DNA of 64,000 nucleotides, taken from the NCBI GenBank assembly GCA_016185525.1, contig JACPNK010000002.1, positions 75,616 to 139,615 on the forward strand, read 5' to 3'. The stretch's first letter is position 1; each line of letters opens with the position of its first letter. The notes under the pieces were generated by a model. The model did no database searches and was not told the origin of the DNA. It worked only from the letters and a program-made list of their open reading frames with translations. This document shows positions 45,933 to 62,169 of this stretch, piece after piece. The translations under genes were made by a program, and so were the position numbers. Origin of the DNA: Candidatus Yanofskybacteria bacterium (lineage in GTDB: Bacteria > Patescibacteriota > Minisyncoccia > 2-02-FULL-40-12 > IGHO2-12-FULL-4).

Positions 45933-48134
45933 ATGGAAAATATTAAACAAACTTATACCTGTCCGATGCATCCGGAAGTTATCAGAAATGAACCGGGGCT
46001 TTGTCCCGGTTGCGGCATGGCGCTGATACCGAAAACGTCTGCGGCCAAAGAAGACAAACCGGATGGCTACGATATTTCAGAGCTAAGCCACAAGAACCAC
46101 GAAGCGGCGATGCCTGCCCGCCATAGCCTTGGCGACGGAGGGACCAACCCGCAAATGGCCAAGAAAATGGAGCAGGATATGCGCCGCCGGTTTTGGGTTT
46201 CTTTTTTGCTTTCAATTCCGATTTTTCTTTATTCGCCGGTAGGTGAAAAGGTGCTTGGTTTGGTTCTGTTTTCGCCGATATCAATCAACTGGTTGCTCTT
46301 GATTCTGACTACGCCGATTGTTTTTTGGACCGGTTCAATTTTCATAACCGGCACTTATTATTCACTCAAAGCCCGCAAGCTTAATATGTCGGTGCTTATC
46401 GCCACCGGCGTTCTGGCGGCGTATCTTTTCAGTGTTCTGCTGACTTTATTGCGTCCGGAGTCAGAAACATTTTACGAAGCGGCAGCTCTTTTGGTGACTT
46501 TTGTTTTGTTCGGCCATTGGATGGAAATGAAATCCCGCCGCGGCACGTCCGATGCCTTGCGCGCTCTTTTTGATTTGGTTCCGCCGCAAGCTAGAGTTGT
46601 AAGAGATGGCAGAGAAGTTTCTGTTCCCAGCTCTGAAATTATTCATAACGATATTGTGGTTCTCCGGCCCGGCGACAAGGTGCCGGTTGACGGCATAGTC
46701 ACAGAAGGAGAAAGCGCGATTGACGAATCGCTGGTTACCGGCGAGTCAATTCCGGTTTCAAAAAAGAACGGCGATAAAGTTATCGGTGGTTCGGTAAATC
46801 AAACCGGCACGGTTAAATTTAAAGCCACTCAAGTCGGTTCGGAAACGGTTCTGGCTCATATTATTAAGCTTGTGGAAACGGCGCAAAATTCCAAAGCGCC
46901 GGGACAGCGCATTGCCGACACAGCGGCCGGTTGGCTGGTGGTTGTTGCCGTCGGTTCGGGATTGGCGGCATTTTTTGGCTGGTATTTCGGCGCCGGCGCC
47001 GGACTTCTTACAGCTCTTACTTTTGCGATTTCAACGGTAGTAATCGCTTGTCCTGACGCTCTCGGCCTTGCCACGCCGACAGCCGTCGCTGTCGGCACCG
47101 GCATCGGCGCCAAACACAATATTCTTATCAAAGATGCGGCGACTCTTGAGAACACTTCCCGGATTAACGCCATCATTTTGGACAAAACCGGCACGCTCAC
47201 GGAAGGAAGACCGAAAGTCACAGACGTTGTGGCGCTTAACGGTTTCAACGAACACGATGTTTTGCGCTACGAAGCCAGTTTGGAAGCCGGTTCCAATCAT
47301 CCTCTATCCAAATCTATTTTTGAAGAGACCGTAAAACGTAACGCCTTGCCGCTTGAACCGATAGAAAACTTTGAGTCAATCGCCGGTTACGGACTTAAGG
47401 CGCGAATTGCCGGTAAAATTGTTTTTGCCGGAAAAGAGAAACTGCTTCAGAACAACGGTATCGCCACCGAGCCGATGAGAAACGTTCTTGACCAACTTGC
47501 CGGAGAAGGGAAGACTTTAAGCTTATTAGCTGTTGATGGAATTTTTGCGGGTGTTGTTGCCGCTGCAGATCCGCCGCGGCCCAATTCTAAAAAAACCGTA
47601 GCGGCGCTCAAAAAACTCGGCATGGAAGTGGTGATGATTACGGGAGACCACGCAAAAGTGGCGGAAGGCGTCGGAAAGGAGCTGGGCATTGACCGGGTTT
47701 TTGCCGAAGTTTTGCCTGAAGACAAAGCAAAGTATGTTAAAAAATTGCAAAGTGAAGGCAAATTTACGGCGATGGTCGGCGACGGCATCAATGATGCGCC
47801 GGCACTAGCGCAAGCGGATATCGGCATAGCCATCGGCGCCGGTACTGATGTCGCCATTGAAACCGGCAACATTGTGCTGATGAAATCCGACCCTTACGAT
47901 ATTGTTGCCGCTTTGCGTTTGAGCAAAGCTACGGTTACCAAAATGAAACAGAATCTTTTTTGGGCGGCGATTTACAACTTGCTGGCTATTCCCGTTGCCG
48001 CCGGAGTGTTTTATAATTCTCTTGGTTGGTCTTTGCGTCCGGAAATTTCCGCTCTGCTGATGTCGGCCTCTTCAATAATTGTTGCAACTAACGCCGTGCT
48101 GTTGAAAAGAGTAGAGCCTGGGCTTAAAAAATGA
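45933..48134 (+). CDS. P1B-type heavy-metal (probably copper) translocating ATPase
   Basis: N-terminal YTCPMHPE...GLCPGCGMAL metal-binding module; DKTGTLT, GDGINDAPAL, TGD; TM CPx motif reads CPD (IACPDALGLATP). Confidence 0.9.
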   Translation: MENIKQTYTCPMHPEVIRNEPGLCPGCGMALIPKTSAAKEDKPDGYDISELSHKNHEAAMPARHSLGDGGTNPQMAKKMEQDMRRRFWVSFLLSIPIFLYSPVGEKVLGLVLFSPISINWLLLILTTPIVFWTGSIFITGTYYSLKARKLNMSVLIATGVLAAYLFSVLLTLLRPESETFYEAAALLVTFVLFGHWMEMKSRRGTSDALRALFDLVPPQARVVRDGREVSVPSSEIIHNDIVVLRPGDKVPVDGIVTEGESAIDESLVTGESIPVSKKNGDKVIGGSVNQTGTVKFKATQVGSETVLAHIIKLVETAQNSKAPGQRIADTAAGWLVVVAVGSGLAAFFGWYFGAGAGLLTALTFAISTVVIACPDALGLATPTAVAVGTGIGAKHNILIKDAATLENTSRINAIILDKTGTLTEGRPKVTDVVALNGFNEHDVLRYEASLEAGSNHPLSKSIFEETVKRNALPLEPIENFESIAGYGLKARIAGKIVFAGKEKLLQNNGIATEPMRNVLDQLAGEGKTLSLLAVDGIFAGVVAAADPPRPNSKKTVAALKKLGMEVVMITGDHAKVAEGVGKELGIDRVFAEVLPEDKAKYVKKLQSEGKFTAMVGDGINDAPALAQADIGIAIGAGTDVAIETGNIVLMKSDPYDIVAALRLSKATVTKMKQNLFWAAIYNLLAIPVAAGVFYNSLGWSLRPEISALLMSASSIIVATNAVLLKRVEPGLKK

Positions 48135-49628: not shown

Positions 49629-50162
49629 TTAATTCTCCTTTCTTTTTCTGTTTTGCTTTTGAACCTGCCGCATCATTTCTTGATGAGTCGGCCAACCGAT
49701 TTCGGGCGGGTTTTTAATGTCAAACCAGTTTACTTCTTTATTTTCCTGCGGGTCGTTATTCCTAATTTTGCCTTTAGCTGTTGCGTAATAGAAAAATACG
49801 AGATGCCCCGGGCTTCGCGGGTCTTCATTTGATTCGGTAAAATTGATAAATCTGGCTTTTATGACAACAAGCCCCGTTTCCTGCTCCACCTCTCTCTTGA
49901 GAGCGGCTTCCGGATGTTCTCGATACTCCACAAAACCTGCCGGAAAATTCCAAGTATTCTTATATGGGTCTCGATTGCGCTTCACCAAAAGAATCTTGTT
50001 TCTCCTGATTATCAAGCCAACCGAAGCCAAGCCGACGGTCGGGTAATGAGTCCAGCAGTTGCAGTAAGTACAGACCTTTCTTGGCGTTCCGTCCGTTGTC
50101 CAGACAGAAAGCCGGCTGGCGCAATACGGGCAGTATTCGTAATCGGATAATGTAATTGGCAT
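49629..50162 (-). CDS. NUDIX hydrolase with N-terminal zinc-ribbon
   Basis: Nudix box AGFVEYREHPEAALKREVEQETGL; CPYC...CTYC. Confidence 0.8.
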   Translation of the reverse strand: MPITLSDYEYCPYCASRLSVWTTDGTPRKVCTYCNCWTHYPTVGLASVGLIIRRNKILLVKRNRDPYKNTWNFPAGFVEYREHPEAALKREVEQETGLVVIKARFINFTESNEDPRSPGHLVFFYYATAKGKIRNNDPQENKEVNWFDIKNPPEIGWPTHQEMMRQVQKQNRKRKEN

Positions 50163-50302: not shown

Positions 50303-52237
50303 TCAAACATCAGTAATTTTTCTGGCTCTGATTTGAGCCAAAAATACATCGGTATTTTCAATAAGTCCCCTTTGCAAAATTCCTTGGATAATATCCTTAA
50401 CGTTCGGGGGGAGGAGTTGTCTGGAAGAACACTCGAGTAATCCGACTTCGGTCATGAAGTCAATTGTCGCTTGTGAAGCGCTCGGTATAAAGTCGTCAAC
50501 TGCTTGATTTAGAGACTTTACATCAACATTTTGACCGCCCGCAAATCTGAATGAGGCGAGAACAATTGCCTCTATATCTGCTCCGGAAAAACCGTCAGTT
50601 TTCTTTGCAAAAGGCACAAAGTCCTTAATATCAGTCGGGATGCCATACCTCTTAAACATCACCCTGAAAATATCCGGCAATTCTTCGGTTGAGGGCATTG
50701 GAATCAAAATTCTCTGATCTCCGCGGCCGCTGCGCTTCAGCGCTGCATCAATACGGTCGGGCCTGTTAGTGCAAGATATTACTACTATCTGGCCTCTGAT
50801 TCTCGGATCAGACAAGAATTCCATCCACATCTTCATTAAGTGTTCTGTAACATTAGAGTCTCCTTTGGGGGTATCTCGTTGGGCGTCGGCCAGATCAGCT
50901 TCGTCATTCATGACAACAACCGGTGTCAGCGACCGCAAAGCATAAATAAATTTTTGCATGCGGGCTTCAGATTCGCCAACCCACATTGAACGTATATTTT
51001 TGGTTTTAATGAAGTTGAACGATGCTTCTTTTGCCAGAGCTTCTACCAATGCTGTTTTTCCGGTTCCGGGCGGACCCATCAAATAAACACCCATCGGCAC
51101 AAGGCGATACTCTGCCTTTTTAATGGCGTCAAGAACTGATTGAAAATAACTTTTTACATAAGACAGCCCGCCGATGTCTTCAAAGCCGCGTTGGGCATCG
51201 ACAATTTCCATTAATTCGCCGTATTCAGTGTTCAGAATAGTCTTTTTTCGATCCTTTACGAAATCTAAGCTTAATGGCTCACCGGTTTTTAGCGCTTGCA
51301 GAAAAATTTCGTAGATTTGTTTAAAGCTCATGCCTTGTGTGGCATGGCCGAAAACAGCAGTATCAAAGTCGTCCGGCAGTACAATCACGGAATCTGAATC
51401 TGCCATCTGTTCGCGTAATTGCTTTGCTTTATATTCTAACTGCGATTTTTTACTACCCCTAGCATTTTTAACCTGTTTTTCTACTTTAGCCAAATCTGTT
51501 GCCAATTCGGCTTTTTCTCTAGCCTTCAACGTGGCGTTGGAAATAAAATCAATTCTTTCCGGTTTTGTCGGCTTGGGAATAAAAACCTGATAAAAACCAG
51601 ATCCATTCCCTCTCAGTTCAACAGAGATTTTACTTATATCGTCTGTCAGCAAGAGAATAAGGTTGTTGCTTTTCCTGTACCAAGTGCTCTTGCTCCAATT
51701 AATCAGCATTTGGATATTGACTCTGTCATTTTGCGGAAGCAGCGCATTTGCGCCGGGATTCGGGGCAACGAAGTGCGCTGATCGGATAATTACCGCGACA
51801 TTTTCGCATTTACCCAGTACTTTACTAATTAGTGGCAGACAGGCATTTGGATCTTGGGGCAAGCCTCGTTTTGCAGCAAGGCCAGCCTTTGCCGCGGCGA
51901 TTGGATCCGCGCTTGTGTCGTCTTCTGATTCCAGTCCGCAGACTTTTTTGAAATCCTTTTCCATTTTCGGATTCAGAAATTTCATGCCGGCAGCAAGATC
52001 ATAGATAATAACGATTCGTCTCTCGTCAAAAATACTTTTGAGGAACTCCAGGAAAGTAATGTAAGCGCGACCGGGTTCGTCCTCGCAATTTGGATTTAGA
52101 ACCAAACCGTCGGTGTCACCATGGAAAATAAATGCATGAGCCAAGCCGGACCTGAATGGCAGTAGGAATTCTTTTTTCAGCCATTCCGGCGCTTTATACT
52201 CTAAAGCTTTTACATCTTCGGTTTTGTCGGTTTTCAT
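50303..52237 (-). CDS. classical-clade AAA+ ATPase with ~350-aa unknown N-terminal domain
   Basis: Walker A GPPGTGKT, Walker B VVVMNDEADL, sensor-1 SCTNRP, Arg finger RSGRGD. Confidence 0.85.
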   Translation of the reverse strand: MKTDKTEDVKALEYKAPEWLKKEFLLPFRSGLAHAFIFHGDTDGLVLNPNCEDEPGRAYITFLEFLKSIFDERRIVIIYDLAAGMKFLNPKMEKDFKKVCGLESEDDTSADPIAAAKAGLAAKRGLPQDPNACLPLISKVLGKCENVAVIIRSAHFVAPNPGANALLPQNDRVNIQMLINWSKSTWYRKSNNLILLLTDDISKISVELRGNGSGFYQVFIPKPTKPERIDFISNATLKAREKAELATDLAKVEKQVKNARGSKKSQLEYKAKQLREQMADSDSVIVLPDDFDTAVFGHATQGMSFKQIYEIFLQALKTGEPLSLDFVKDRKKTILNTEYGELMEIVDAQRGFEDIGGLSYVKSYFQSVLDAIKKAEYRLVPMGVYLMGPPGTGKTALVEALAKEASFNFIKTKNIRSMWVGESEARMQKFIYALRSLTPVVVMNDEADLADAQRDTPKGDSNVTEHLMKMWMEFLSDPRIRGQIVVISCTNRPDRIDAALKRSGRGDQRILIPMPSTEELPDIFRVMFKRYGIPTDIKDFVPFAKKTDGFSGADIEAIVLASFRFAGGQNVDVKSLNQAVDDFIPSASQATIDFMTEVGLLECSSRQLLPPNVKDIIQGILQRGLIENTDVFLAQIRARKITDV

Positions 52238-52238
52238 G

Positions 52239-52913
52239 TTAAGACCTCACATGTAAAAAATGCTGGTGTTCCACATTTTGTGGAATCGGTTGTCCTGATT
52301 CGTGTTCTTCTGATAAGGCGATTTTAACACCAAACTTTTTAGCCAAAGTTAAAAACTTTGACCGCTCTTCTTTCAATGAAGAGGCCGAGTCAAAATGTTC
52401 AAAAGCTAAGACTCCCTCGCCCGTAGTTCCAACGGAAACTTTTAAGTATCTATGGACGTTCGCGTCCTCATTTTTCTCACCCTCAAGGATTATTGTCTTT
52501 TGACCGTCGATTGTTTTTTCAGAAACTACAATCGTATAATCCAATAACTGGGCAATTACTCCGGTAACTTCTATCTGAAATCTTTCGGAAACCTTTTTGG
52601 CTATGGCCTCAATTTTTCTTTTTTCTACAGCTTCGGTGTATTTAGATTTGATTTCCAATTCTCCGTTGCGAATAAGAAACTCAACTTTCCCAATTTTATC
52701 TACGGCTTCTAACGCGCGCTCGAGAGCCGTATTTAACAGAGGATTAATGTCCAAGTCAGATGCCCACTCTAAGAAAACAACATCAGTTACTCCCATATTT
52801 TCCAATAAGTCTTTGGTTATTTTGGGGGCTTTTGATCTTTCTTTAAATTCGTTGACAATCTTGGGTTCTACACGGATTGTAGTAATATTTTTGTATCCGA
52901 TATCACAAGGCAT
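52239..52913 (-). CDS. hypothetical protein (224 aa) co-transcribed with AAA+ gene
   Basis: 1-nt intergenic gap to AAA gene; own promoter TTGCCA-N17-TAATAC (52953-52981, minus). Confidence 0.5.
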   Translation of the reverse strand: MPCDIGYKNITTIRVEPKIVNEFKERSKAPKITKDLLENMGVTDVVFLEWASDLDINPLLNTALERALEAVDKIGKVEFLIRNGELEIKSKYTEAVEKRKIEAIAKKVSERFQIEVTGVIAQLLDYTIVVSEKTIDGQKTIILEGEKNEDANVHRYLKVSVGTTGEGVLAFEHFDSASSLKEERSKFLTLAKKFGVKIALSEEHESGQPIPQNVEHQHFLHVRS

Positions 52914-52981
52914 AAGTTACTCCTTATTTTAAAAGTGCTTGAAAGCAATATCGTATTAGCACACTTTTATTATTTTGGCAA

Positions 52982-53006
52982 GTAAAAAACGCTCTTTGGA
53001 GCGTTG
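52982..53006 (-). terminator. intrinsic terminator aacgctc-tttgg-gagcgtt plus U-run (minus strand) after vWA-2
   Basis: Read directly. Confidence 0.5.
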
Positions 53007-53017
53007 TGTTTTTGCGG

Positions 53018-54019
53018 TTAAACCTTGAGACCGCCGCCTTTTTTAGAAGTATTCTTTTGGGATTGCGCTGGATTTACTGGTCCATCTTTTTTCTTTTGAA
53101 CATTTTTTTCTTTCAACATTGTCTCAAGGGGTTTAAGCGCCTCTGTTACTTGGTTAATTCTTTCTTGTGTTTGCGGCTTATATTTCTTTCCGCCCATTTC
53201 CAATGGCCGGTTTTTCATGTCCTCAACATAACCCGAGAGTGTTCTCTTGCCTGACACCAAAGCTAAAATTCCCAAAGTCAAGTCGGCAATTGCCGTATCG
53301 TCTGGTAATTTAATAACATAATTTTTACCGAGAACTTTTTCCCATTGGGCTACAATTTCAGAATCCAAACCATAGTTATTATAATATCTGTGCAATAAGA
53401 AAACATTATCCATGAATTTGGCTTTTAGCTCAGCAAAGATGACGCTGGTATTTATGTTTTCATGCTGTCCGCCAAAACGCTTTTTTAATTCACTCCCGAG
53501 CAATTGCTCTCTAAATCCTTCATCGCCGGTAAAGAGTAGAATCGGCAGTTGAGCATTTGGCATGTCGCAACAGCGTGCATAGAAATAAGCCATGAATTCA
53601 TAAGATTCAAAATGCTGTCCGCCGCCGCCACCCTCTATCCAGATCTTTTGTAACCAAGGGTCTAAGCTTTTGATTACGGAGAAATCGCAAACCTGCAGTG
53701 GTCCGCGATCTGAAGTGACATCGCCAACGGCCGCTAAGCTCACATCCGGGTCTTCAAGATATTTTTGTTCAACAATTTGTCCCGCGATCATGGGCATTTT
53801 GTCGTAGATTAATTTGGGCAAGGTACCCATAGAACCCGTTACATCGTAAACGTAAACCAGGGGATTTCTATGCGCTGAAACAAGTTTTCGTTCAAAAGGC
53901 AATAAATCATTGGATAATACCGACCGTGACATCTGCTCTTGAGCAAAAGTTGATACACCCGAACTTAGTTTACTAACCACAGAAACATCTCTGTCATAAT
54001 AAGCGCCGCTACTGCCCAT
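53018..54019 (-). CDS. von Willebrand factor A (vWA) domain protein, paralog 2, C-terminus KKGGGLKV
   Basis: MIDAS-like VYDVTGSMG, AVGDVTSDR, EGGGGGQHFESY (GGT-type) motifs; own promoter TTGACA-N17-TATAAA (54057-54085, minus); ATG 54019. Confidence 0.6.
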   Translation of the reverse strand: MGSSGAYYDRDVSVVSKLSSGVSTFAQEQMSRSVLSNDLLPFERKLVSAHRNPLVYVYDVTGSMGTLPKLIYDKMPMIAGQIVEQKYLEDPDVSLAAVGDVTSDRGPLQVCDFSVIKSLDPWLQKIWIEGGGGGQHFESYEFMAYFYARCCDMPNAQLPILLFTGDEGFREQLLGSELKKRFGGQHENINTSVIFAELKAKFMDNVFLLHRYYNNYGLDSEIVAQWEKVLGKNYVIKLPDDTAIADLTLGILALVSGKRTLSGYVEDMKNRPLEMGGKKYKPQTQERINQVTEALKPLETMLKEKNVQKKKDGPVNPAQSQKNTSKKGGGLKV

Positions 54020-54127
54020 AAAGTTTCCTTTTTTGTTTTTAAATAACAGCAAATACTTTATACCAATTACACTCTTCTCTGTCAAGCACAACGCAACGGC
54101 GCCAATAAAAAATCCAGCATAGTTGGA

Positions 54128-55159
54128 TTAAACTTTGAGACCGCCGCCTTTTTTATCTTTCTTCGGCTCTTTATCTTTAGCTTTCGTAACGAACGATGTT
54201 ACAGTATCGCCTTTTTTGTCTTTATTTATTCCGTAAAGTTTAACAAAAGCATTTTGGGAAATCTCTAAGTACTCTTTGCCGACGCCTTTCTTTTTGAGGT
54301 TCTCAACCGCTTCTTGAGGGCTGACCTTGCCTTCGCAAACACCGACGATTGTCCCGATGAGTTCGCAGATCTGGCTTGTTTTTTCCATACCCATTACAAA
54401 CTCTTCACCGAGTAGTCCTCTCCACGTGCTCCAGATTTCCGGATCGCGACCATTATTGGTTTCGCGAGGAATGATGTAGATAACGACATATTTTTTATTT
54501 GCTTCCTCAATGATTTTTTTCAACGGAATATTTTCATCCGGTCCGAAACCGCCCATTAAATCTTTGATTTCCGAAGCCCGGACATTATTGTAAGGCAGTT
54601 CATCGCCGAACATAATAAAGTAGCCTTTTTTACCGCGCTTTTCAAAACAATCGATTTGAGTGTGCCGCGCCATATAATAAAGCGCGTTTTGATATGACTC
54701 AGTGTTTTGTCCGCCGCCGCCGCCTTCCAGGTAAACTCTCTGGAAGAAATTCATCAGTTCTTGAGCGCCGGATTCAAATTGTCCGACTTGGAACGGAACC
54801 CGATCACAAGTTGAATCGCCGACAGCGCTGAACATGACGGCAACATCGGGCAAGTAATTTTTCTCAAGAAGATAGCCCATAAGATCTTTCAGATTGGGTT
54901 CCAATTCCTTGGGGACATTTAACAGCGATCCGGTAACATCAAACCAAAGAGCTAAAGCGTTGGATTGGGGATGGGCATCGCTATCGCGAGACTCCCTGTT
55001 CCGTCGAAATTCTTCTGCGATTGAAAGTTTTTCGTGGCATACTGCGCTAGTACGTCCTTGTCGTATGTCTGCGGTTCTGGCAAAAGTGTCTTTTCCACTG
55101 TCTTTAATAGTTTTTTTTGTCTTCAATAAATCTTCATCGCTATAAGTTCTATAGCCCAT
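54128..55159 (-). CDS. vWA domain protein, paralog 1, C-terminus KKGGGLKV
   Basis: WFDVTGSLL, AVGDSTCDR, EGGGGGQNTESY; K/E-rich tail. Confidence 0.6.
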   Translation of the reverse strand: MGYRTYSDEDLLKTKKTIKDSGKDTFARTADIRQGRTSAVCHEKLSIAEEFRRNRESRDSDAHPQSNALALWFDVTGSLLNVPKELEPNLKDLMGYLLEKNYLPDVAVMFSAVGDSTCDRVPFQVGQFESGAQELMNFFQRVYLEGGGGGQNTESYQNALYYMARHTQIDCFEKRGKKGYFIMFGDELPYNNVRASEIKDLMGGFGPDENIPLKKIIEEANKKYVVIYIIPRETNNGRDPEIWSTWRGLLGEEFVMGMEKTSQICELIGTIVGVCEGKVSPQEAVENLKKKGVGKEYLEISQNAFVKLYGINKDKKGDTVTSFVTKAKDKEPKKDKKGGGLKV

Positions 55160-55182
55160 GTCTCCTCCTTATTTTAAAAGGT

Positions 55183-55241
55183 CAGTATCGCGAATTACGA
55201 TACTGACCCAAGATACAGCTATATTAAAATTTTGTCAAATG
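55183..55241 (-). promoter_or_regulatory. promoter TTGACA-N17-TATCTT followed immediately by 5'-terminal hairpin GGTCAGTATCG-N7-CGATACTGACC and UUUU before SD
   Basis: Perfect 11-bp stem at 55183-55211 located between -10 and AAGGAGGAGAC-ATG of vWA-1. Confidence 0.5.
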
Positions 55242-55308
55242 GCATTGCCAAGTCATAATATCTATGGTATTGTTTTGGCAATCTTTGACAATTGAATAGA
55301 GGCGCCGA

Positions 55309-57267
55309 ATGTTTACAAGAATGCCGCCACCGATGGATTTACTTCTTTTAAGCGGTTCTGTTTTAGACTCGCCTTGGCCTAAAAGAATCAGAGATAATCT
55401 AGGCATAATACAAAAAGCTGAAATGAGAAGAAAACTATATACCGATTTTCAGGGAATTTTTAAAAGGATTCCGGAAGTAAAAATGGATATTAGTGAAGCC
55501 ATTGGTTCTGGCTTGATAGACCAAACCAATGTTGCCAGAATCTATGACAATTTAACAGAATTTCTTTTAAGCGACATTGATCACGCACGATTAATTCTGT
55601 ATTTGCCTTTTGAACTTTTACCAAACAGAAAATTGAGTATTTTTTGTTCCGGTCCGTTAAGTTTGGCATCTGATAAATTTATTGAGGCGTATATTCTAAG
55701 TTGGAGAGAACTGCTCAACGAAAGTGACTTTCGGGCTGATTATGTTGACGGGGATATATTAGAATACGAGTTGGATGAAGTTGTATTGCCTCATGTGAGA
55801 AAGGCAGCCCATCTAATCCCGCAAATGATTAAAAAAAATCTTGTTTCAGTAGCCGATGTTCTGGAAATATTAGAAAAAACAAATGACGAGGTTTTGGTTT
55901 ATAGTATTCTTGATACTTTTCCAACACTTACTGATTTGGGTTTAGTTTCTGAAACCGAATGGCGCAGACTTTTCAATTCTGACAATCCCATATTTGATAA
56001 AACCGTTTTGGCTCAATACCAAAATCTAAAATCAAATCCGCCGCGCTCGGAAGCGGAAATCGCAAATGCGGTATTTGGCGGGAAGATTAGTTCAGAACAA
56101 ATGAAGACTTTGACGGAAAGTTTGCGAGTTGACTTATCAAGGATTTCCCTTGATTGCATAAGGGGAGAAATTAAAACAGCGCCAAAATCTAGAATTGATT
56201 GGTTGAGAAAAGAAAGACAGTCCAAGTGTCTTGAAGAGTACGGCATCCTTTTGGCCGAATCGTTGCTAAACAATAAAATTAAGGCAAAAGATATTACCGT
56301 TTTATTGAAGAAAGAAAACAGCGAAGAACTGCGGATTGCCTGTATTACAGCTGTGCGTATTGCGACCGAAAGATTGACCAAATGTAACAAGGAAAGGGCG
56401 GAGACTATCAAGACTTATTTTGAGCCTTATTTTCTTGCTCTATGGCAAAAAGGTTCAACAAAAATTAAGGACCAGTTATTTATCTTGTGGTCCCATTGGC
56501 TAGCAATTGATTTTATTGATTATCAGTACATTGAGGAAAAGTCGGGTCTAAAAATGCCGCAACTAGATTCCTTTGCGACAGAACAGTTTCTTATCAGTCA
56601 AGATCTAGATGAACTTGGGCCCGTGTTAGAGGATTTTTATTCTCAACCGGAAGCCGGCGCTTTATTTTATCCGGTATTCATATTTTTTGGTTCACGATTA
56701 AAAGGATATTCATTGAACTTTGATTCTGATTTGGACTTAGCCGTATTTATCAGACCCGATACCCCACAAAGCGAAGAATCAAAAATAAGATCTTTGTTGG
56801 AAAAAGTCGGCTCACATCCCAAAATAAGGGGAAGAGTTACAGAATTTTGGCTGGATAAGATCGGCGGACACTTGGAAATAAAAAGTTCGCCAATGACGGA
56901 CGCTTTAATAAAAGACGCGAGGGTGGATAATTCCTGGGCGCATTTATTGCTTTGCGGCATGTGGTGCGGCCAGCCGGAGTCAATAAGAGAATTATACGAA
57001 AAATTGCTGCCAAATTTTTTATTTTCCGCCGGTCAGAGCATTAAAGGCCACAGAGCTAAAAAAATATGGTTGAGAATGATAGAATCGGAAGTTCTCCAGT
57101 ATCGGCTGATGCATAAAGGTTATCAGCGATTTTATCCTCGCGAAGATTGGCGTATAACAGAACATTCCTGGCCAATGGATCCGCACAGCACTTTCTGGGA
57201 CCCGGGTTATAGAAGAGTTGCAAGCAAATTATTCGTGGCCAGAGTTTTCTTGCCGGAATTAAAATAA
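55309..57267 (+). CDS. large protein (652 aa) with C-terminal Pol-beta-superfamily nucleotidyltransferase motif (GlnE/GlnD-like)
   Basis: FIFFGSRLKGYSLNFDSDLDLAVFI = hG[GS]-x9-DxDLxxF NTase signature near residue 475; N-terminal 430 aa helical, unknown. Confidence 0.55.
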   Translation: MFTRMPPPMDLLLLSGSVLDSPWPKRIRDNLGIIQKAEMRRKLYTDFQGIFKRIPEVKMDISEAIGSGLIDQTNVARIYDNLTEFLLSDIDHARLILYLPFELLPNRKLSIFCSGPLSLASDKFIEAYILSWRELLNESDFRADYVDGDILEYELDEVVLPHVRKAAHLIPQMIKKNLVSVADVLEILEKTNDEVLVYSILDTFPTLTDLGLVSETEWRRLFNSDNPIFDKTVLAQYQNLKSNPPRSEAEIANAVFGGKISSEQMKTLTESLRVDLSRISLDCIRGEIKTAPKSRIDWLRKERQSKCLEEYGILLAESLLNNKIKAKDITVLLKKENSEELRIACITAVRIATERLTKCNKERAETIKTYFEPYFLALWQKGSTKIKDQLFILWSHWLAIDFIDYQYIEEKSGLKMPQLDSFATEQFLISQDLDELGPVLEDFYSQPEAGALFYPVFIFFGSRLKGYSLNFDSDLDLAVFIRPDTPQSEESKIRSLLEKVGSHPKIRGRVTEFWLDKIGGHLEIKSSPMTDALIKDARVDNSWAHLLLCGMWCGQPESIRELYEKLLPNFLFSAGQSIKGHRAKKIWLRMIESEVLQYRLMHKGYQRFYPREDWRITEHSWPMDPHSTFWDPGYRRVASKLFVARVFLPELK

Positions 57268-57268
57268 A

Positions 57269-57295
57269 AGTCCTGACAGAGGGACTTTTTTATTA
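57269..57295 (+). terminator. intrinsic terminator aagtcc-tgacagag-ggactt plus TTTTTATT
   Basis: Followed by promoter CTTGACA-N17-TATTTA. Confidence 0.5.
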
Positions 57296-57358
57296 CCAAA
57301 CTTGACATTTTTGTAATAATAATGTATTTATAAATAAAAAGAACCTTAATAATCAGGA

Positions 57359-58315
57359 GTGAAAATGCTCATAGGAACCTTGCCGACTTTGACCAGCGAT
57401 TCTTCCTTATCCTTAGCCGAGAAAATGGTTTCTCATCCGCTGATTTCCGCAGTCCGTTACAACACGGGCGGGGACAGTCCATTCAAGCCGATTGACATAC
57501 TAACACGAGTTAAACAATTAACCGATAAATACGGGAAGGTGTTATATATTGATTTAGAAGGAAGACAATTGCGCGTTGCGCATTGGACTCCGTTTGAGGC
57601 CGGAAGCATAACGCTAAACCGAGATTTCGAGATTGTACCTCCCGCCAGAGTTCACATAAGAAATGCCGGTTGGTTTAATTTGGTTGCGGCAGATTCCGCT
57701 AAAAGAAAAATATATGTTGAAAACGGCCCCAAGTTTGGTCCAGGTCAATACTATTTTGGCGAAAGCCAAAGCGTGCATATTGTCGGCGACAGCTTCAACG
57801 TTCGGGGTTATCTTGGGGGTTTAGACAGCGAATACATAAAAGCTTCAATCAAACTCGGTCTTAATCATTTCATGCTTTCTTTCGTAGAATGCGCGAATGA
57901 TATTAATGAGTTTTACAGGTTTTTTTCCGGAAGACGCGGTTTTAATCAGTTGGTAGTCTTGAAAATAGAATCCCGGGAAGGCCTTAAATTCATTCAAAAG
58001 AAAACACTAGGCTCAAATGAAAAATTAATGGCCGCCAGAGACGATTTGCTTATCAGTTTTGGCGATAATCCGACCGGAATTTTCAAAGCTCTGCAGATGA
58101 TTATTAATGCCGATTCGGATGCCATTTTGGCTTCCAGAATTATGCACGGCATTCAAGATTCCGGCGAGATTGCCATGGGTGATATTTCGGATTTGATTCT
58201 GATGTCGCAGATTGGCTATAAGAATTTTATGTTTTCTGACGGCCTAGCAAAGCATTTTGGTCAAGCCATAAAATCATGGCAGGAAATTCTGCCTCTTTTG
58301 AGAAAAGAGGGTTGA
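57359..58315 (+). CDS. PK-like/HpcH-HpaI-like TIM-barrel protein (PEP/pyruvate-utilising fold)
   Basis: VVLKIESREGL...LMAARDDL resembles pyruvate-kinase/HpcH barrel active-site strand; weak. Confidence 0.4.
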   Translation: MKMLIGTLPTLTSDSSLSLAEKMVSHPLISAVRYNTGGDSPFKPIDILTRVKQLTDKYGKVLYIDLEGRQLRVAHWTPFEAGSITLNRDFEIVPPARVHIRNAGWFNLVAADSAKRKIYVENGPKFGPGQYYFGESQSVHIVGDSFNVRGYLGGLDSEYIKASIKLGLNHFMLSFVECANDINEFYRFFSGRRGFNQLVVLKIESREGLKFIQKKTLGSNEKLMAARDDLLISFGDNPTGIFKALQMIINADSDAILASRIMHGIQDSGEIAMGDISDLILMSQIGYKNFMFSDGLAKHFGQAIKSWQEILPLLRKEG

Positions 58316-58316
58316 T

Positions 58317-59558
58317 ATGCCGAAACGGATGGCAATTATTGTCGGCGGCGGTCTTTTTGGAGACGAGGGCAAGGGCAGTACGGTAGATTATTTAGTCCGA
58401 AGATATGACGCCCATACGGTATTCCGCTACAACGGAGGTTCACAGGCGGCGCATAATGTAGTCACACCCGAAGGACTGCATCATTGTTTTGCGCAATTTG
58501 GTTCGGGTACTCTTGTGCCGGGAATTTTCACATATCTTAGTCAGTTTATGGTTATCGATCCTCTTCGGTTAGTGTCTGAATATGAAACACTTTCCAGTAA
58601 AGGAATTAAAGATGTCATTGAACGGCTGGTTATAAGCAAGAAATGTCCTGTTATAACCCCTTTTCACAAATTTGCCGGTCAAATGAGAGAGTTGGCTCGC
58701 GGAGCAAATAGATTCGGAAGCTGCGGCATGGGTGTTGGAGAAGCGATTAACGATTTCACGGAATCGCCAGGAGATAGTTTAACCATAGGAGATTTAGCAA
58801 GACCTAACGTTCTGCAAAGAAAATTAAAAAAATTGCAAATTAGCAAAATTGTAGTTGGTAAAAAACTATTGGAACCCGAAAGTAACGACAAACTTCAAAA
58901 ATGTTTTGACGAAATCCAATCTCAAAATCTTCTTGAAAGATGTATTGAATCGTATTCTGTTTTTTCTAGTTTTCCAATAAATTTTGATGACGGCACAACA
59001 CTTAAAAGAATTTTAAATCGTCCGGGAACCGTTGTCTTTGAAGGAGCGCAGGGCGCTCTGCTAGACAAAAGCCGGGGCTTTAAACCTTTTATAACCAAAT
59101 CCGATTGTTCTTTCGGAAATGCCGAAAGATTACTGGCCGGTTTTGAAGGAAAAACAATAAAACTAGCTGTTGCACGCGCATATGCGACAAGGCATGGCAG
59201 AGGTCCGTTTGTAACAGAGGATCCGAAACTTACCAAAAAATTGCCCGACACGCATAATGTGACAAATGACTGGCAGGGAAAATTTAGAGTTGGGTGGTTT
59301 GACCTAATTGCATTAAATTATGGTTTGGAAATTTTAGGAAAACCAGACGGTATTGTCTTAACAAATATTGACAGGATTGCAAATTTCGATTCAATAAAAA
59401 TCTGTGATGGCTATAGGACAAAGTCGGGAGAAATTTTCCCAAACTATCTTTACTTCAAAGAAACCGATAAACTCCTTAAATTTTTGAAAGAAAAATTATC
59501 TTTACCCATACTCATTATTTCTCATGGTTCGACATATAAGGATAAGTTAGAAACATAA
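58317..59558 (+). CDS. purA: adenylosuccinate synthetase-family protein (divergent PurA homolog)
   Basis: GDEGKG P-loop, GGSQAAHNV, FEGAQGALLD...FITKSD motifs; 413 aa; starts 2 nt after upstream gene. Confidence 0.75.
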   Translation: MPKRMAIIVGGGLFGDEGKGSTVDYLVRRYDAHTVFRYNGGSQAAHNVVTPEGLHHCFAQFGSGTLVPGIFTYLSQFMVIDPLRLVSEYETLSSKGIKDVIERLVISKKCPVITPFHKFAGQMRELARGANRFGSCGMGVGEAINDFTESPGDSLTIGDLARPNVLQRKLKKLQISKIVVGKKLLEPESNDKLQKCFDEIQSQNLLERCIESYSVFSSFPINFDDGTTLKRILNRPGTVVFEGAQGALLDKSRGFKPFITKSDCSFGNAERLLAGFEGKTIKLAVARAYATRHGRGPFVTEDPKLTKKLPDTHNVTNDWQGKFRVGWFDLIALNYGLEILGKPDGIVLTNIDRIANFDSIKICDGYRTKSGEIFPNYLYFKETDKLLKFLKEKLSLPILIISHGSTYKDKLET

Positions 59559-59565
59559 AAAAAAT

Positions 59566-59596
59566 CCGCGAGCTTGTGCTCGCGGTTATTTATTTT
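59566..59596. terminator. bidirectional terminator ccgcgagc-ttgt-gctcgcgg flanked by A-run and T-run
   Basis: Convergent genes on both sides. Confidence 0.6.
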
Positions 59597-60054: not shown

Positions 60055-62169
60055 ATGGCAACCGCGGAATTTCTAAAAAAAGTTTGGGATTTTATCCGGA
60101 AAAATTACCCCTCAATTATCGTATTCGGGGGTATTTATTTTATCTTTTTTTACTTTTTCAGGCCGGCTTTGCTTTTTTCTACGGCAACACCAACGGGAGG
60201 CGATATGGGCTCGCACTTTTATACCGCTTCTTACGCCAGCGAATTTTTATTGAAGAGTCCCTCTGTTTTTAACTGGGACTTTGGCTGGTTTGCCGGTTAT
60301 CCGCCTTTTATATTCTATTTTCCGCTGGCCTTTTTTGCCATGGGTCTTTTGGATTTTTTTATGCCTCTTCAGGTTGCTTTCAAACTTGTCGCTATTTCCG
60401 GCACATTTCTGCTTCCGGCGGCGGTTTACTATTTAGTCAGGTCTTTCAGATTGAGAAGCCCCTATCCGCAGTTAGGCGCTCTTTTGTCTCTGCTTTTTTT
60501 ATTTAACAACAATGTGGGAAGCAGCGCCCAAATCTGGGGCGGCACAATAATGAGCATGCTGGCCGGGGAATTTTCTCACAGTTTAAGCATTGCGTTAGGC
60601 ATATTTTTTCTCGGCGCTTTTTACCGCTCGCTGAACGCAAATAAAAAAGTTATCTTGCCGGCCGTACTTTTGTCTCTAACTCTTTTGGCCCACGCGCTTA
60701 CTTTTACTTGGGTTGCGGTAGTTTCGCTTGGCTTGATATTGCCCAATTTTTCTAAAGAAAAGTTGTGGTATTGCATAAAAGTGATGGCGCTTGCGGCGCT
60801 GATTGATTCTTTTTGGCTGATACCGACTCTGGTTTACAAACCGTATTTTCTTAATCTGGCCAACAACTGGCCGGCAAATTTTAAAGACATACTTCCCGCA
60901 AGTTTGATTTTCTGGCCGGCTTTTATGCTGCCGGCTCTGATCTTGCGCAAAAAGAAACTTCTGAATTTCGCCGTTTTTATCGGAATCGGCATCGGAGCTT
61001 CGCTTGTTTTGTCTCTTTTTGCTCTCAAGATGGGAATTTATGCCGTCAGATACTACCCCTACTTTCAGTTAACTTTTGTAATCAGCGGTATTTTTGCCGC
61101 CGCAGTCATACGCAAAAAAGCTGCCGTAATTTTTTCGTTTATCTTTTTACTGGGCATTTCTTACTTCATATTGACCCAGCGCCAGGAACCGGTCATTGGC
61201 TGGCTGAAATGGAACTTTGAAGGAACAGAGGCCAAATTAAATTTTCAAAACTTAAAAATGGCAAATGAATTTCTTAGAGGCACAATAGCAGATCCGAGAG
61301 TGATTACAGAGTTTAATCAGGAAAACAACGACACGGGCACAGTCAGAAACAACGAGTTGGTGCCCTTGCTTTCCGGACGCCAGACGCTTGAAGGAGTTTA
61401 CTTGTTTTCCAGCATAACCAACCCGTTCATTTTTAAAATCCAGTCGGAAATTTCAGTCAACAAAAGCTGTCAGACGGATGTTATCGGTCTGCCCTGCGGC
61501 GATGTGGACTATGACCTCGGCGCAGAGCATCTTAAAATGTTCAATGTCAGCCATCTGATTGTCCGCAGTCAGAAAATAAAAGAAATACTTCAAACAAGAA
61601 GTGACTTTGTGAAATTAGCCGATTTTCCTCCTTTTGAGGTCTGGCAGTTCCTTTCAAACAGCAATAGTTATGTTTCCGTTCCAAAATTTCAGCCGGCTGC
61701 TTACGTCGGAAGCGGGGATTGGAAAAAAGTCTCTTTTGACTGGTTTAATAAAAAAGAACAACTGGATACACCGTTAATTTTTAACGCCTCTAAAAAAGAC
61801 TTAAAATCCGGCATCATAACGACATCACTTGCTGATTTAAATGGCGGATTGCAGAAAATAGAAACGGCAAAGAACTGCCAAGTAACGGAAAAAATTAGCC
61901 ACAACAAGATACAATTTAAAACTAACTGCATTGGTTCGCCTCATTTAATCAAAATTTCTTATTTCCCCGCTTGGGGGGTAAAAGGCGCTTCAAAAGTTTT
62001 CTTTGCCAGCCCATCTTTTATGCTGGTCTATCCGGAAAAAGAAGAAGTGGAATTAAAATTCGGAAGCGGGGGAGTCGCAAAATTGCTAAATCAACTCCCG
62101 TTAATTTCTCTGCTGACGCTCTTCGGAATATTTTTCTATAAACATAAAAAAGGTAAACCAGTTGTATAA
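60055..62169 (+). CDS. large polytopic membrane protein, probable GT-C-type (YfhO-like) glycosyltransferase
   Basis: ~12 N-terminal TM helices, ~300-aa extracytoplasmic domain, C-terminal TM; 704 aa. Confidence 0.45.
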   Translation: MATAEFLKKVWDFIRKNYPSIIVFGGIYFIFFYFFRPALLFSTATPTGGDMGSHFYTASYASEFLLKSPSVFNWDFGWFAGYPPFIFYFPLAFFAMGLLDFFMPLQVAFKLVAISGTFLLPAAVYYLVRSFRLRSPYPQLGALLSLLFLFNNNVGSSAQIWGGTIMSMLAGEFSHSLSIALGIFFLGAFYRSLNANKKVILPAVLLSLTLLAHALTFTWVAVVSLGLILPNFSKEKLWYCIKVMALAALIDSFWLIPTLVYKPYFLNLANNWPANFKDILPASLIFWPAFMLPALILRKKKLLNFAVFIGIGIGASLVLSLFALKMGIYAVRYYPYFQLTFVISGIFAAAVIRKKAAVIFSFIFLLGISYFILTQRQEPVIGWLKWNFEGTEAKLNFQNLKMANEFLRGTIADPRVITEFNQENNDTGTVRNNELVPLLSGRQTLEGVYLFSSITNPFIFKIQSEISVNKSCQTDVIGLPCGDVDYDLGAEHLKMFNVSHLIVRSQKIKEILQTRSDFVKLADFPPFEVWQFLSNSNSYVSVPKFQPAAYVGSGDWKKVSFDWFNKKEQLDTPLIFNASKKDLKSGIITTSLADLNGGLQKIETAKNCQVTEKISHNKIQFKTNCIGSPHLIKISYFPAWGVKGASKVFFASPSFMLVYPEKEEVELKFGSGGVAKLLNQLPLISLLTLFGIFFYKHKKGKPVV

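Follow-up and report, generated by a model that had tools for sequence, protein, structure and literature searches.

A Cdc48-type AAA+ ATPase and two vWA-like paralogues of Candidatus Yanofskybacteria in a conserved neighbourhood with a widespread vWA-like/PurA-like gene pair

Introduction

In the CbbQ-CbbO, NorQ-NorD and BchI-BchD systems, a von Willebrand factor A (vWA) adaptor bearing a metal ion-dependent adhesion site (MIDAS) links an AAA+ motor with its client. Here we analyse a 64-kb stretch of a Candidatus Yanofskybacteria genome (candidate phyla radiation (CPR)/Patescibacteria), referred to in its entirety as the window, in which two vWA-like genes, an orphan gene (p224) and a Cdc48-type AAA+ ATPase gene (AAA) at 50303-55159 stand back to back with an operon for a nucleotidyltransferase (NTase), a pyruvate kinase (PK) relative and a relative of adenylosuccinate synthetase (PurA-like). 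Like the MoxR-vWA pairs (CbbQ-CbbO, RavA-ViaA, NorQ-NorD, CoxD-CoxE) and BchI-BchD, the locus has an AAA+ gene beside a vWA gene with MIDAS-type motifs. However, its ATPase belongs to the Cdc48/VAT clade rather than to the MoxR or helix-2-insert groups and is a tandem with a probably dead first module (D1), and the locus differs further in having two vWA paralogues without a Pfam VWA match, the orphan p224, and a PurA-like protein as presumed client. With Cdc48, p97, VAT and bacterial Cdc48-like proteins, the ATPase shares a closely matching second module (D2), Walker A and B motifs, a Trp-Val-Gly pore loop and the tandem AAA architecture, but it lacks the double-psi-barrel N domain, its D1 lacks Walker A and B, and its score stays below the Cdc48 family cut-off. 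To our knowledge, Cdc48 has no vWA, p224 or PurA-like partners.

The PurA-like protein shares the PF00709 fold, the GDEGKG motif, His41, Gln224 and Asp333 with PurA and PurZ. It departs from PurA at Thr300, Thr301, Arg303, Arg305 and Arg143 and reaches about half of the PurA cut-off; compared with PurZ, which is defined by Ser instead of Asp at position 13 (PMC12884076), it keeps Asp13, reaches about one-seventh of the cut-off and is paired with a vWA-like gene throughout. Likeness to NrtR-regulated NAD operons and to the phage NAD-rebuilding pathways NARP1-3 is one of context only (NrtR-like regulator, NadE-NadD, NudC-like NUDIX, phage salvage genes): the window itself has no NrtR gene, and the NARP enzymes (Adps/Namat, Nampt/Nmnat, PnuC/NadR-like) are not homologous to the vWA-like or PurA-like proteins. 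NARP3, which consists of PnuC and a NadR-like enzyme (PMC13464706), was considered as a related pathway and rejected.

An original prediction, made from the letters of 50303-55159, held the four genes there to be a candidate undescribed system, and curated families, the defence catalogue and the searchable literature indeed contain no system that joins a Cdc48-type AAA to vWA proteins. The same sources hold no description of a vWA-like plus PurA-like module. The pairing of AAA+ motors with vWA adaptors is already known; the form found in the window is new and is tied to a widespread, uncharacterised enzyme pair. Among bacterial AAA+/vWA partnerships it would be the first with a classical Cdc48-type unfoldase instead of MoxR, with the orphan p224 in addition. 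The vWA-like/PurA-like module is carried, unannotated, by thousands of genomes, those of Streptomyces, Micromonospora and Frankia among them, and by some 200 well-studied mycobacteriophages of cluster C; in these tractable organisms it is therefore directly testable. A link to NAD/ADP-ribose, if true, would bear on NAD homeostasis and on the contest between phage and host over NAD.

Results and discussion

A conserved neighbourhood of two sub-modules

All four minus-strand open reading frames of the original prediction are present and co-oriented at 50303-55159, and they cohere across loci. The boundary drawn around them was too narrow, however: the divergent operon encoding the NTase, the PK-barrel-like protein and the PurA-like protein is part of one conserved neighbourhood with them. 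In the window this unit, found in diverse uncultured bacteria, spans 50303-59558 and has seven genes, or perhaps eight if the NudC-like NUDIX gene (49629-50162) is counted. Its members are as follows.

54128-55159, minus strand: vWA-1, 343 aa, a 'canonical' member of the vWA-like family
53018-54022, minus strand: vWA-2, 334 aa from ATG 54022 (TTG open reading frame to 54091), a diverged paralogue that accompanies the p224-AAA pair
52239-52913, minus strand: p224, 224 aa, orphan alpha+beta protein
50303-52237, minus strand: AAA gene as a whole, 644 aa
51203-52237, minus strand: AAA residues 1-345, probable degenerate AAA module (D1)
50303-51202, minus strand: AAA residues 346-644, Cdc48/VAT D2-like module and C-terminal helical extension
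55309-57267, plus strand: NTase, 652 aa, Pol-beta-type nucleotidyltransferase core, divergent from vWA-1
57359-58315, plus strand: PK-barrel-like protein, 318 aa, pyruvate kinase relative with the TIM barrel only
58317-59558, plus strand: PurA-like GTP-dependent ligase, 413 aa, last gene of the divergent operon
49629-50162, minus strand: NUDIX hydrolase with Zn-ribbon in a NudC-like arrangement, shortly downstream of AAA, a possible accessory member

We compared 28 loci with the AAA gene, 25 from metagenomes scanned with a DNA pattern of the AAA N-region and three from protein look-ups. The gene set, which the original prediction expected to be co-conserved, recurs together in about 20 distinct metagenomic loci with its order shuffled. 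The p224 gene stands directly upstream of AAA in all 26 informative loci (those with room for p224), and a vWA-2-type gene flanks the p224-AAA pair in about 19. PurA-like lies within 15 of the 17 AAA loci of at least 9 kb, most of which also carry the PK-barrel-like gene. AAA clusters further contain an NTase homologue, a fusion of NAD synthase and NaMN adenylyltransferase (NadE-NadD), or both: NTase homologues with 35-43% identity occur in the cluster at L106-L110 and L112, and NadE-NadD occupies the NTase position in L005 and others. Thus the large, divergently transcribed nucleotidyltransferase gene, noted at the outset as lying next to the system, belongs to the conserved cluster. NDK is present in one AAA locus (L091). 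Gene order and orientation vary among these loci, and their GC content ranges from 38.5% to 68.5%; therefore, the linkage is not simply inherited synteny.

The neighbourhood consists of two sub-modules: p224 followed by the tandem AAA, with vWA-2, and vWA-1 plus PurA-like, with the PK-barrel-like gene and NTase or NadE-NadD. In CPR loci the vWA-1-type copy stands directly upstream of PurA-like wherever both occur, and the vWA-2-type copy adjoins AAA. The evolutionary core is the vWA-like/PurA-like pair, and the window holds a local form of this widespread pair.

Two contigs gave incidental observations. In L117 (811-1809), the AAA match extends over just 336 bp before the PK-like gene starts, which suggests a truncation or pseudogene. 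A 390-aa protein (P0125) that combines about the first 190 residues of the AAA N-region with a Ser/Thr kinase C-lobe would, if genuine, link the two alternative partner sets of the vWA-like/PurA-like pair described below, but we rejected it as a Rosetta-stone fusion because it comes from a 1,618-bp Logan contig that starts mid-kinase, and it is probably an assembly chimera.

The vWA-like/PurA-like pair in other bacteria and in phages

The vWA-like family has at least 4,377 database matches. From a scan covering a single genome of each GTDB species we took the 80 best loci (Actinomycetota, Chloroflexota, Planctomycetota, Acidobacteriota), obtained a myxobacterial locus of Labilithrix by a separate look-up, and identified neighbouring genes by targeted tblastn. 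The vWA-like genes proved not to be specific to the AAA cluster: AAA is absent at 80 of 80 GTDB loci, where tblastn also found no p224, PK-barrel-like or NTase gene, and the constant neighbour is PurA-like. The vWA-like gene is directly upstream of PurA-like in about 70 of the 80, as it is in Labilithrix and another bacterium, and a homologue of a phage 'kinase' is directly upstream of vWA-like in most of them.

Searches of phage genomes with vWA-1 (tblastn) returned about 220 records from three unrelated phage groups. In Mycobacterium cluster C phages, the vWA-like gene directly precedes an annotated adenylosuccinate synthetase (QBert gp254-gp255) and follows a 'serine/threonine kinase' (gp253); the same vWA-like/PurA-like order is found in Vibrio phage TDDLMA and Rhizobium phage TM39. 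The labels 'adenylosuccinate synthetase', 'PurZ-like' and 'serine/threonine kinase' are, judging by the motifs described below, probably wrong for these phage genes. The TDDLMA gene (L002 7842-8954; phrog_1211), annotated as a '2-aminooxy adenylosuccinate synthetase' (PurZ-like), falls in the PurA-like family that lacks the aspartate loop and keeps Asp13, so that the PurZ annotation of phrog_1211 is probably wrong for these phages as well. In Rhizobium phage RHph_TM39 (L003 2519-4122), phosphoribosyltransferase-like and NMN adenylyltransferase/NUDIX genes lie 2.7-4.3 kb upstream of the pair and resemble the NARP2 NAD-salvage set.

A gene encoding a NUDIX domain with a winged helix (NrtR-like) stands directly upstream in 56 of 90 loci; for its product, Pfam NrtR_WHD gives 1.2e-11, and an NCBIfam model of an ADP-ribose (ADPR)-responsive repressor gives 138 bits, under the cut-off. 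The resulting four-gene operon, NrtR-like, 'kinase', vWA-like and PurA-like in that order (L066 8133-12099 and 55 further loci of the set L008-L090), extends across Actinomycetota and some Planctomycetota and Acidobacteriota, and its stop and start codons overlap, as shown for Micromonospora. A gene-level tblastn search of the window found no NrtR homologue bearing the winged helix-turn-helix; the NUDIX core of 49629-50162 was the sole match. The NrtR2 targets nrtX-nrtY of Rodionov et al. 2008 (PMC2330246), to which no function is assigned, may or may not be counterparts of genes in this four-gene operon; in Frankia they are arranged divergently, unlike the loci analysed here.

The 'kinase' (QBert gp253, L001 3832-4905; L066 8885-9856; L004 6829-7950) begins with a J domain that has an invariant HPD motif and is matched by Pfam DnaJ in four of six members (best 1.7e-6), followed by a CK2-like fold in which the catalytic HRDxK reads HGAxL. 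Hsp70 recruitment is an established function of J domains. Because HPD is invariant and the catalytic loop is HGA, not HRD, the protein is probably a pseudokinase that recruits Hsp70 rather than one with kinase activity. No locus combines this J-pseudokinase with the p224/AAA/PK-barrel set: tblastn with phage and Labilithrix queries detected no homologue of it in the window, and none occurs at the AAA loci. The same phage and Labilithrix queries lent no support to p224 or the AAA N-region being a diverged kinase.

A predicted PurA-fold ligase with an altered second-substrate site

The PurA-like protein matches PF00709 at 6e-68 and fails the cut-offs of both specific families: 199 bits against 402 for NF002223 and 168 against 396 for TIGR00184 (PurA), and 44.4 against 300 for NF038379 (PurZ). 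The GDEGKG P-loop (D13, K16), H41, Q224, T239 and the guanine-specifying D333 are kept; the P-loop, D13, H41 and D333 are the same in the window protein and five relatives, the exception being D333 in the Vibrio copy. The aspartate loop GATTGRRRR of PurA reads NDWQG-KFR, in which T300 is replaced by W, T301 by Q and R305 by F, and R303 is deleted; R143 (inter-subunit) and R131 are lost too. Phage, myxobacterial and CPR members have these changes in common. Since the aspartate-site residues are lost, the PurA and PurZ cut-offs are failed and Asp13 is kept, the protein is predicted to be a PurA-fold GTP-dependent ligase with a different second substrate.

The PK-barrel-like protein has no B or C domain, falls just under the PF00224 cut-off (1.1e-6, 28.4 bits against 30) and well under those of the NCBIfam pyruvate kinases (41.8 bits against 432; 32.2 against 306), and matches PDB pyruvate kinases at 4e-4. 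Its LKIES and ARDDL align by eye with the PK motifs SKIEN and ARGDL, the Lys/Glu and Asp motifs being kept. By its domain content it is not a full-length pyruvate kinase (A, B and C domains). The NTase has a GS...DxD core at residues 458-500 with weak matches to Pfam Polbeta and NTP_transf_2 and to NCBIfam MntA, no match among PDB sequences, and in PADLOC just PDC-S09 at E 0.036.

Two paralogous vWA-like proteins

As predicted, vWA-1 and vWA-2 are paralogues (E 6e-36 at 32% identity), with the same KKGGGLKV at the C-terminus. The predicted vWA fold is confirmed by an AlphaFold2 model of vWA-1 (pLDDT 86.8, pTM 0.86), for which Foldseek gave 144 matches at E <= 1e-3, with integrin I, vWF A1/A3 and collagen VI vWA domains in the PDB at E 4e-6 to 1e-4 and probability 1.0. 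Across an alignment of 42 sequences, the DVTGS and GGGGGQ motifs, likewise foreseen, are invariant or nearly so; D74, T76 and S78 (DVTGS, in a MIDAS-type DxTxS...D pattern) and G185-D186-E187 do not vary at all. The position of the middle MIDAS Thr falls within the GGGGGQ..ES loop, with no one-to-one equivalent. Sequence searches gave nothing for either protein at E <= 0.1 in Pfam (VWA families included), NCBIfam or PADLOC, and no match in the PDB with vWA-1 alone or with a vWA profile. The sole family match is phrog_2971, a phage family with no function assigned (vWA-1 1.4e-47, vWA-2 1.1e-26).

The two paralogues belong to different branches of the neighbourhood. vWA-1 has 40-47% identity to homologues in other phyla that adjoin PurA-like genes; the vWA genes that flank p224-AAA at other loci have 48-66% identity to vWA-2 and just 24-30% to vWA-1. 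A Met-Gly N-terminus is found in 117 of 120 vWA-like family members, phage copies and the vWA-2 type included; in the window it is encoded at 55159-55154 (vWA-1) and 54022-54017 (vWA-2). N-termini kept this strictly across phyla, here and in p224 (Met-Pro-Cys), are unusual and suggest N-terminal chemistry or docking.

At the other end, the last approximately 25 residues of vWA-1 are predicted to be disordered, and the Lys-rich tail ends in LKV. Reading the tail KKGGGLKV, which the original prediction considered as possibly required for interaction, as an AAA-specific signal fails on comparison: Yanofskybacteria-group tails are Lys-rich and end in [LF][KR][IV], and many AAA-less relatives in other phyla also end hydrophobic-basic-hydrophobic after a variable, disordered tail (GLTRL, VERL; ADRL in QBert). 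Similar tail ends with and without AAA mean that the tail cannot be an AAA-specific docking signal. Probably, the vWA C-terminal peptide docks onto a partner common to all versions.

A Cdc48-like ATPase and its orphan companion

Assignment of the ATPase to the classical AAA clade (Cdc48/FtsH) agrees with PF00004 at 9e-26 and with CDC48, PAN and FtsH as top NCBIfam families, all under their cut-offs; TIGR01243 (CDC48) scores 133.8 bits against 802.65 and covers D2 and nothing else. Residues 346-600 match the D2 modules of VAT, Cdc48 and p97 in the PDB at 9e-60 (phmmer), and residues 380-510 hold Walker A GPPGTGKT, Walker B NDEAD, the pore loop MWVGESE (WVG) and SGRGDQR. MoxR-type models match over the P-loop only (AAA_5 E 0.011, bpMoxR E 0.039), and by sequence the AAA partner is not of the MoxR clade. 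PADLOC hits, to IetA and TRIP13, likewise come from the generic AAA core only.

The N-terminal region of about 350 aa, at first considered novel, aligns collinearly with the protein's own D2 module (hhalign E 0.004 for an alignment of six sequences; for one of 17, E 3.2e-4 across 134 columns). VAVIIRSAHF pairs with PVVVMNDEADL at the Walker-B strand, LILLLTD with VVISCTN at the sensor-1 strand and VFIPKPTKPER with ILIPMPSTEEL at the strand past the arginine finger, and the first lid helix is the fourth paired element. Given this collinearity over four elements, the N-region is probably a degenerate, nucleotide-blind D1. It has no Walker A or B, carries an invariant family-specific loop, DPIAAAKAGLAAKRGLP, and a lineage-specific coiled insert, and its profile found no match among PDB sequences.

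The p224 protein gave nothing in Pfam, NCBIfam or PADLOC, and nothing below E 0.09 with Foldseek against the PDB. An N-terminal Met-Pro-Cys..Gly and FEHF are invariant in the family, and a GQPI near the C-terminus is conserved but variable. We found no p224 in viral contigs, with a search alignment that is highly variable.

A tentative mechanism and its rivals

We tentatively propose, while allowing that it may well be wrong, that in this lineage p224 and the Cdc48-like unfoldase replace the J-domain recruiter and remodel vWA-PurA-like complexes engaged in nucleotide chemistry linked to NAD/ADP-ribose. The PurA-like protein would keep the GTP-dependent phosphoryl activation of adenylosuccinate synthetase and join something besides free aspartate to a nucleotide-type substrate connected to NAD/ADP-ribose. 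The vWA-like protein would be its obligatory partner, bound through the MIDAS face and the flexible C-terminal peptide. The complex would need ATP-driven remodelling, for which a J domain may recruit Hsp70 in most lineages and, in this one, a hexameric Cdc48-like unfoldase would act with p224 as cofactor and vWA-2 as MIDAS adaptor, much as CbbO-CbbQ act on Rubisco and BchD-BchI in Mg-chelatase. The PK-barrel-like protein (NDK in L091) may regenerate the GTP used by the ligase. The pathway seems tied to NAD/ADP-ribose metabolism by the company these genes keep: the NrtR-like gene upstream in 56 of 90 loci, NadE-NadD in many CPR clusters, the NudC-like NUDIX gene beside the window AAA, and the salvage genes of TM39.

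Several points weigh against this proposal. The assignment of D1 is a modest profile-profile score with a probability of 39%, obtained from sequence only, and for p224, which resembles no recognisable fold, the 'cofactor' role is guessed from its place next to AAA. Threading of the vWA tail by AAA gains no specific support from the end motif. One 20-kb locus (L111) holds p224-AAA-vWA-2 with no PurA-like or PK-barrel gene nearby, so the ATPase trio may serve other clients. For NAD, the link is contextual: in small CPR genomes NadE-NadD could simply be a housekeeping gene next door, and regulators of the NrtR family act on non-NAD pathways as well (PMC2330246). Apart from co-occurrence and motif content, the scheme as a whole is inferred.

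The genes could instead form a nucleotide-based conflict system, in which the PurA-like protein, the NTase and a phosphotransferase make or destroy a modified nucleotide signal or toxin, vWA senses the invader and AAA is the effector or regulator. Phage copies would then serve in counter-defence and might, for instance, restore or shield NAD or inactivate a nucleotide second messenger. We regard this as unlikely, but it has several findings in its favour. A mix of NTase, NUDIX, AAA and vWA domains is typical of predicted conflict systems. The pair, with or without the J-pseudokinase, recurs in the roughly 220 genomes of three unrelated phage groups and lies near NAD-salvage genes in TM39, an ADPR-type regulator stands upstream in 56 of 90 bacterial loci, and three phage NAD-rebuilding pathways, NARP1, NARP2 and NARP3, have already been described (PMC13464706). 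However, PADLOC has no match for vWA-1, vWA-2 or p224, reaches E 0.036 for the NTase and only the generic core for AAA, p224 was not found in viral contigs, and the window neighbours are ordinary cellular genes with even GC. Moreover, about 20 Micromonospora loci have the same gene spacing, with NrtR-like identity of 92-96% in most, so the set looks there like a stable chromosomal operon and not like a mobile island.

The invariant N-termini bring up protein-nucleotide conjugation: PurA-like would use the vWA N-terminal Gly amine (or another protein amine) as nucleophile, the partner would be joined to a purine or pyridine nucleotide, and the Cdc48-like ATPase would unfold the tagged protein, loosely like Pup-Mpa. 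The Met-Gly start of 117 of 120 vWA-like members and the likewise invariant MPC of p224 fit such a scheme, as do the replacement of T300, T301, R303 and R305 while phosphotransfer residues are kept, the strict adjacency of the vWA-like and PurA-like genes, and an unfoldase-type AAA with an aromatic pore loop. Yet the AAA partner is missing from most family members, residues 1-10 of vWA-1 are modelled at a moderate pLDDT of 71, TIGR03689 (pup_AAA) scores the AAA at 49.8 bits against a cut-off of 504.75, and we know of no PurA-fold enzyme that uses a protein amine as substrate. With every step of it deduced, we hold conjugation to be very improbable. Much the same improbability attaches to a loose neighbourhood, that is, a right-hand operon of nucleotide/NAD housekeeping (PurA, pyruvate kinase, NAD synthase) with a general proteostasis device of vWA, p224 and AAA nearby by chance. 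CPR genomes are compact and their housekeeping genes cluster; L111 carries the ATPase trio alone, and a terminator-like hairpin and separate promoter-like sites split the left genes into two units. But the same families recur together in varied orders and orientations over a wide GC range, vWA-PurA-like adjacency extends to phages and five bacterial phyla, the PurA-like protein scores under the PurA equivalog cut-off and has no aspartate site, and the PK-like protein is barrel-only (42 against 432 bits).

Returning to the proposed remodelling of vWA-PurA-like complexes, a bolder version, quite unlikely in our estimation, would make the pair a new enzyme system in which a GTP-activated substrate of nucleotide or ADP-ribose type is joined to a non-aspartate nitrogen, one candidate being the vWA N-terminal Gly, with a protein-nucleotide conjugate as the product; bacteria would place it under ADP-ribose control, copies in large phages would resist NAD-depleting immunity, and CPR would have added a dedicated Cdc48-like unfoldase.

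Gene starts, transcription signals and flanking genes

In public records the AAA protein is labelled 'ATP-binding protein' and p224 'hypothetical protein', and vWA-1 is 100% identical to the protein HYX21_00935 of a metagenome-assembled genome. The stop codon of p224 and the start of AAA are one base apart (TAA-C-ATG), so the two genes appear translationally coupled. ATG 54022 is more likely than TTG as the start of vWA-2, because a putative AAGGAA ribosome-binding site precedes it and a promoter claimed for the gene falls inside the TTG extension. Three features outside the coding sequences complete the layout.

55160-55308: intergenic region from which vWA-1 and the NTase operon diverge, with promoter-like hexamers on each strand
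52988-53005, minus strand: terminator-like hairpin and T-run between vWA-2 and p224, followed by the TTGCCA-N17-TAATAC site
59566-59585: GC-rich hairpin, perfect 8-bp, with T-runs on both strands, resembling a bidirectional terminator that ends the NTase/PK-like/PurA-like operon

Of the three promoters in the original prediction, the strings exist (55238-55210, 54085-54057 and 52981-52953), but promoter-like sites in the region are no more numerous than chance would have it (24, against 21.2 +/- 6.1 in shuffles); they therefore carry little weight, and we rejected them as evidence. Within the vWA-1/NTase intergenic region, TTGACA-N17-TATCTT (55238-55210) is on the minus strand and TTGTCA-N16-CATAAT (55232-55259) on the plus strand.

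The NUDIX gene at 49629-50162 has promoter-like and terminator-like sites of its own and occurs in just one further AAA locus (L100); its product matches PF00293 at 7.5e-23, with NAD(+) diphosphatase as top NCBIfam match (3.3e-13, under the cut-off). Farther out, GC content is 0.50 at 46001-48000, against about 0.40 in the rest of the window; this interval lies inside a heavy-metal P-type ATPase gene (~45957-48134; HMBD and E1-E2 ATPase), and its composition could reflect horizontal acquisition. On the other side, at 60055-62169, a predicted membrane protein of 704 aa has no Pfam match and no homologue in related loci, and appears to lie outside the cluster.

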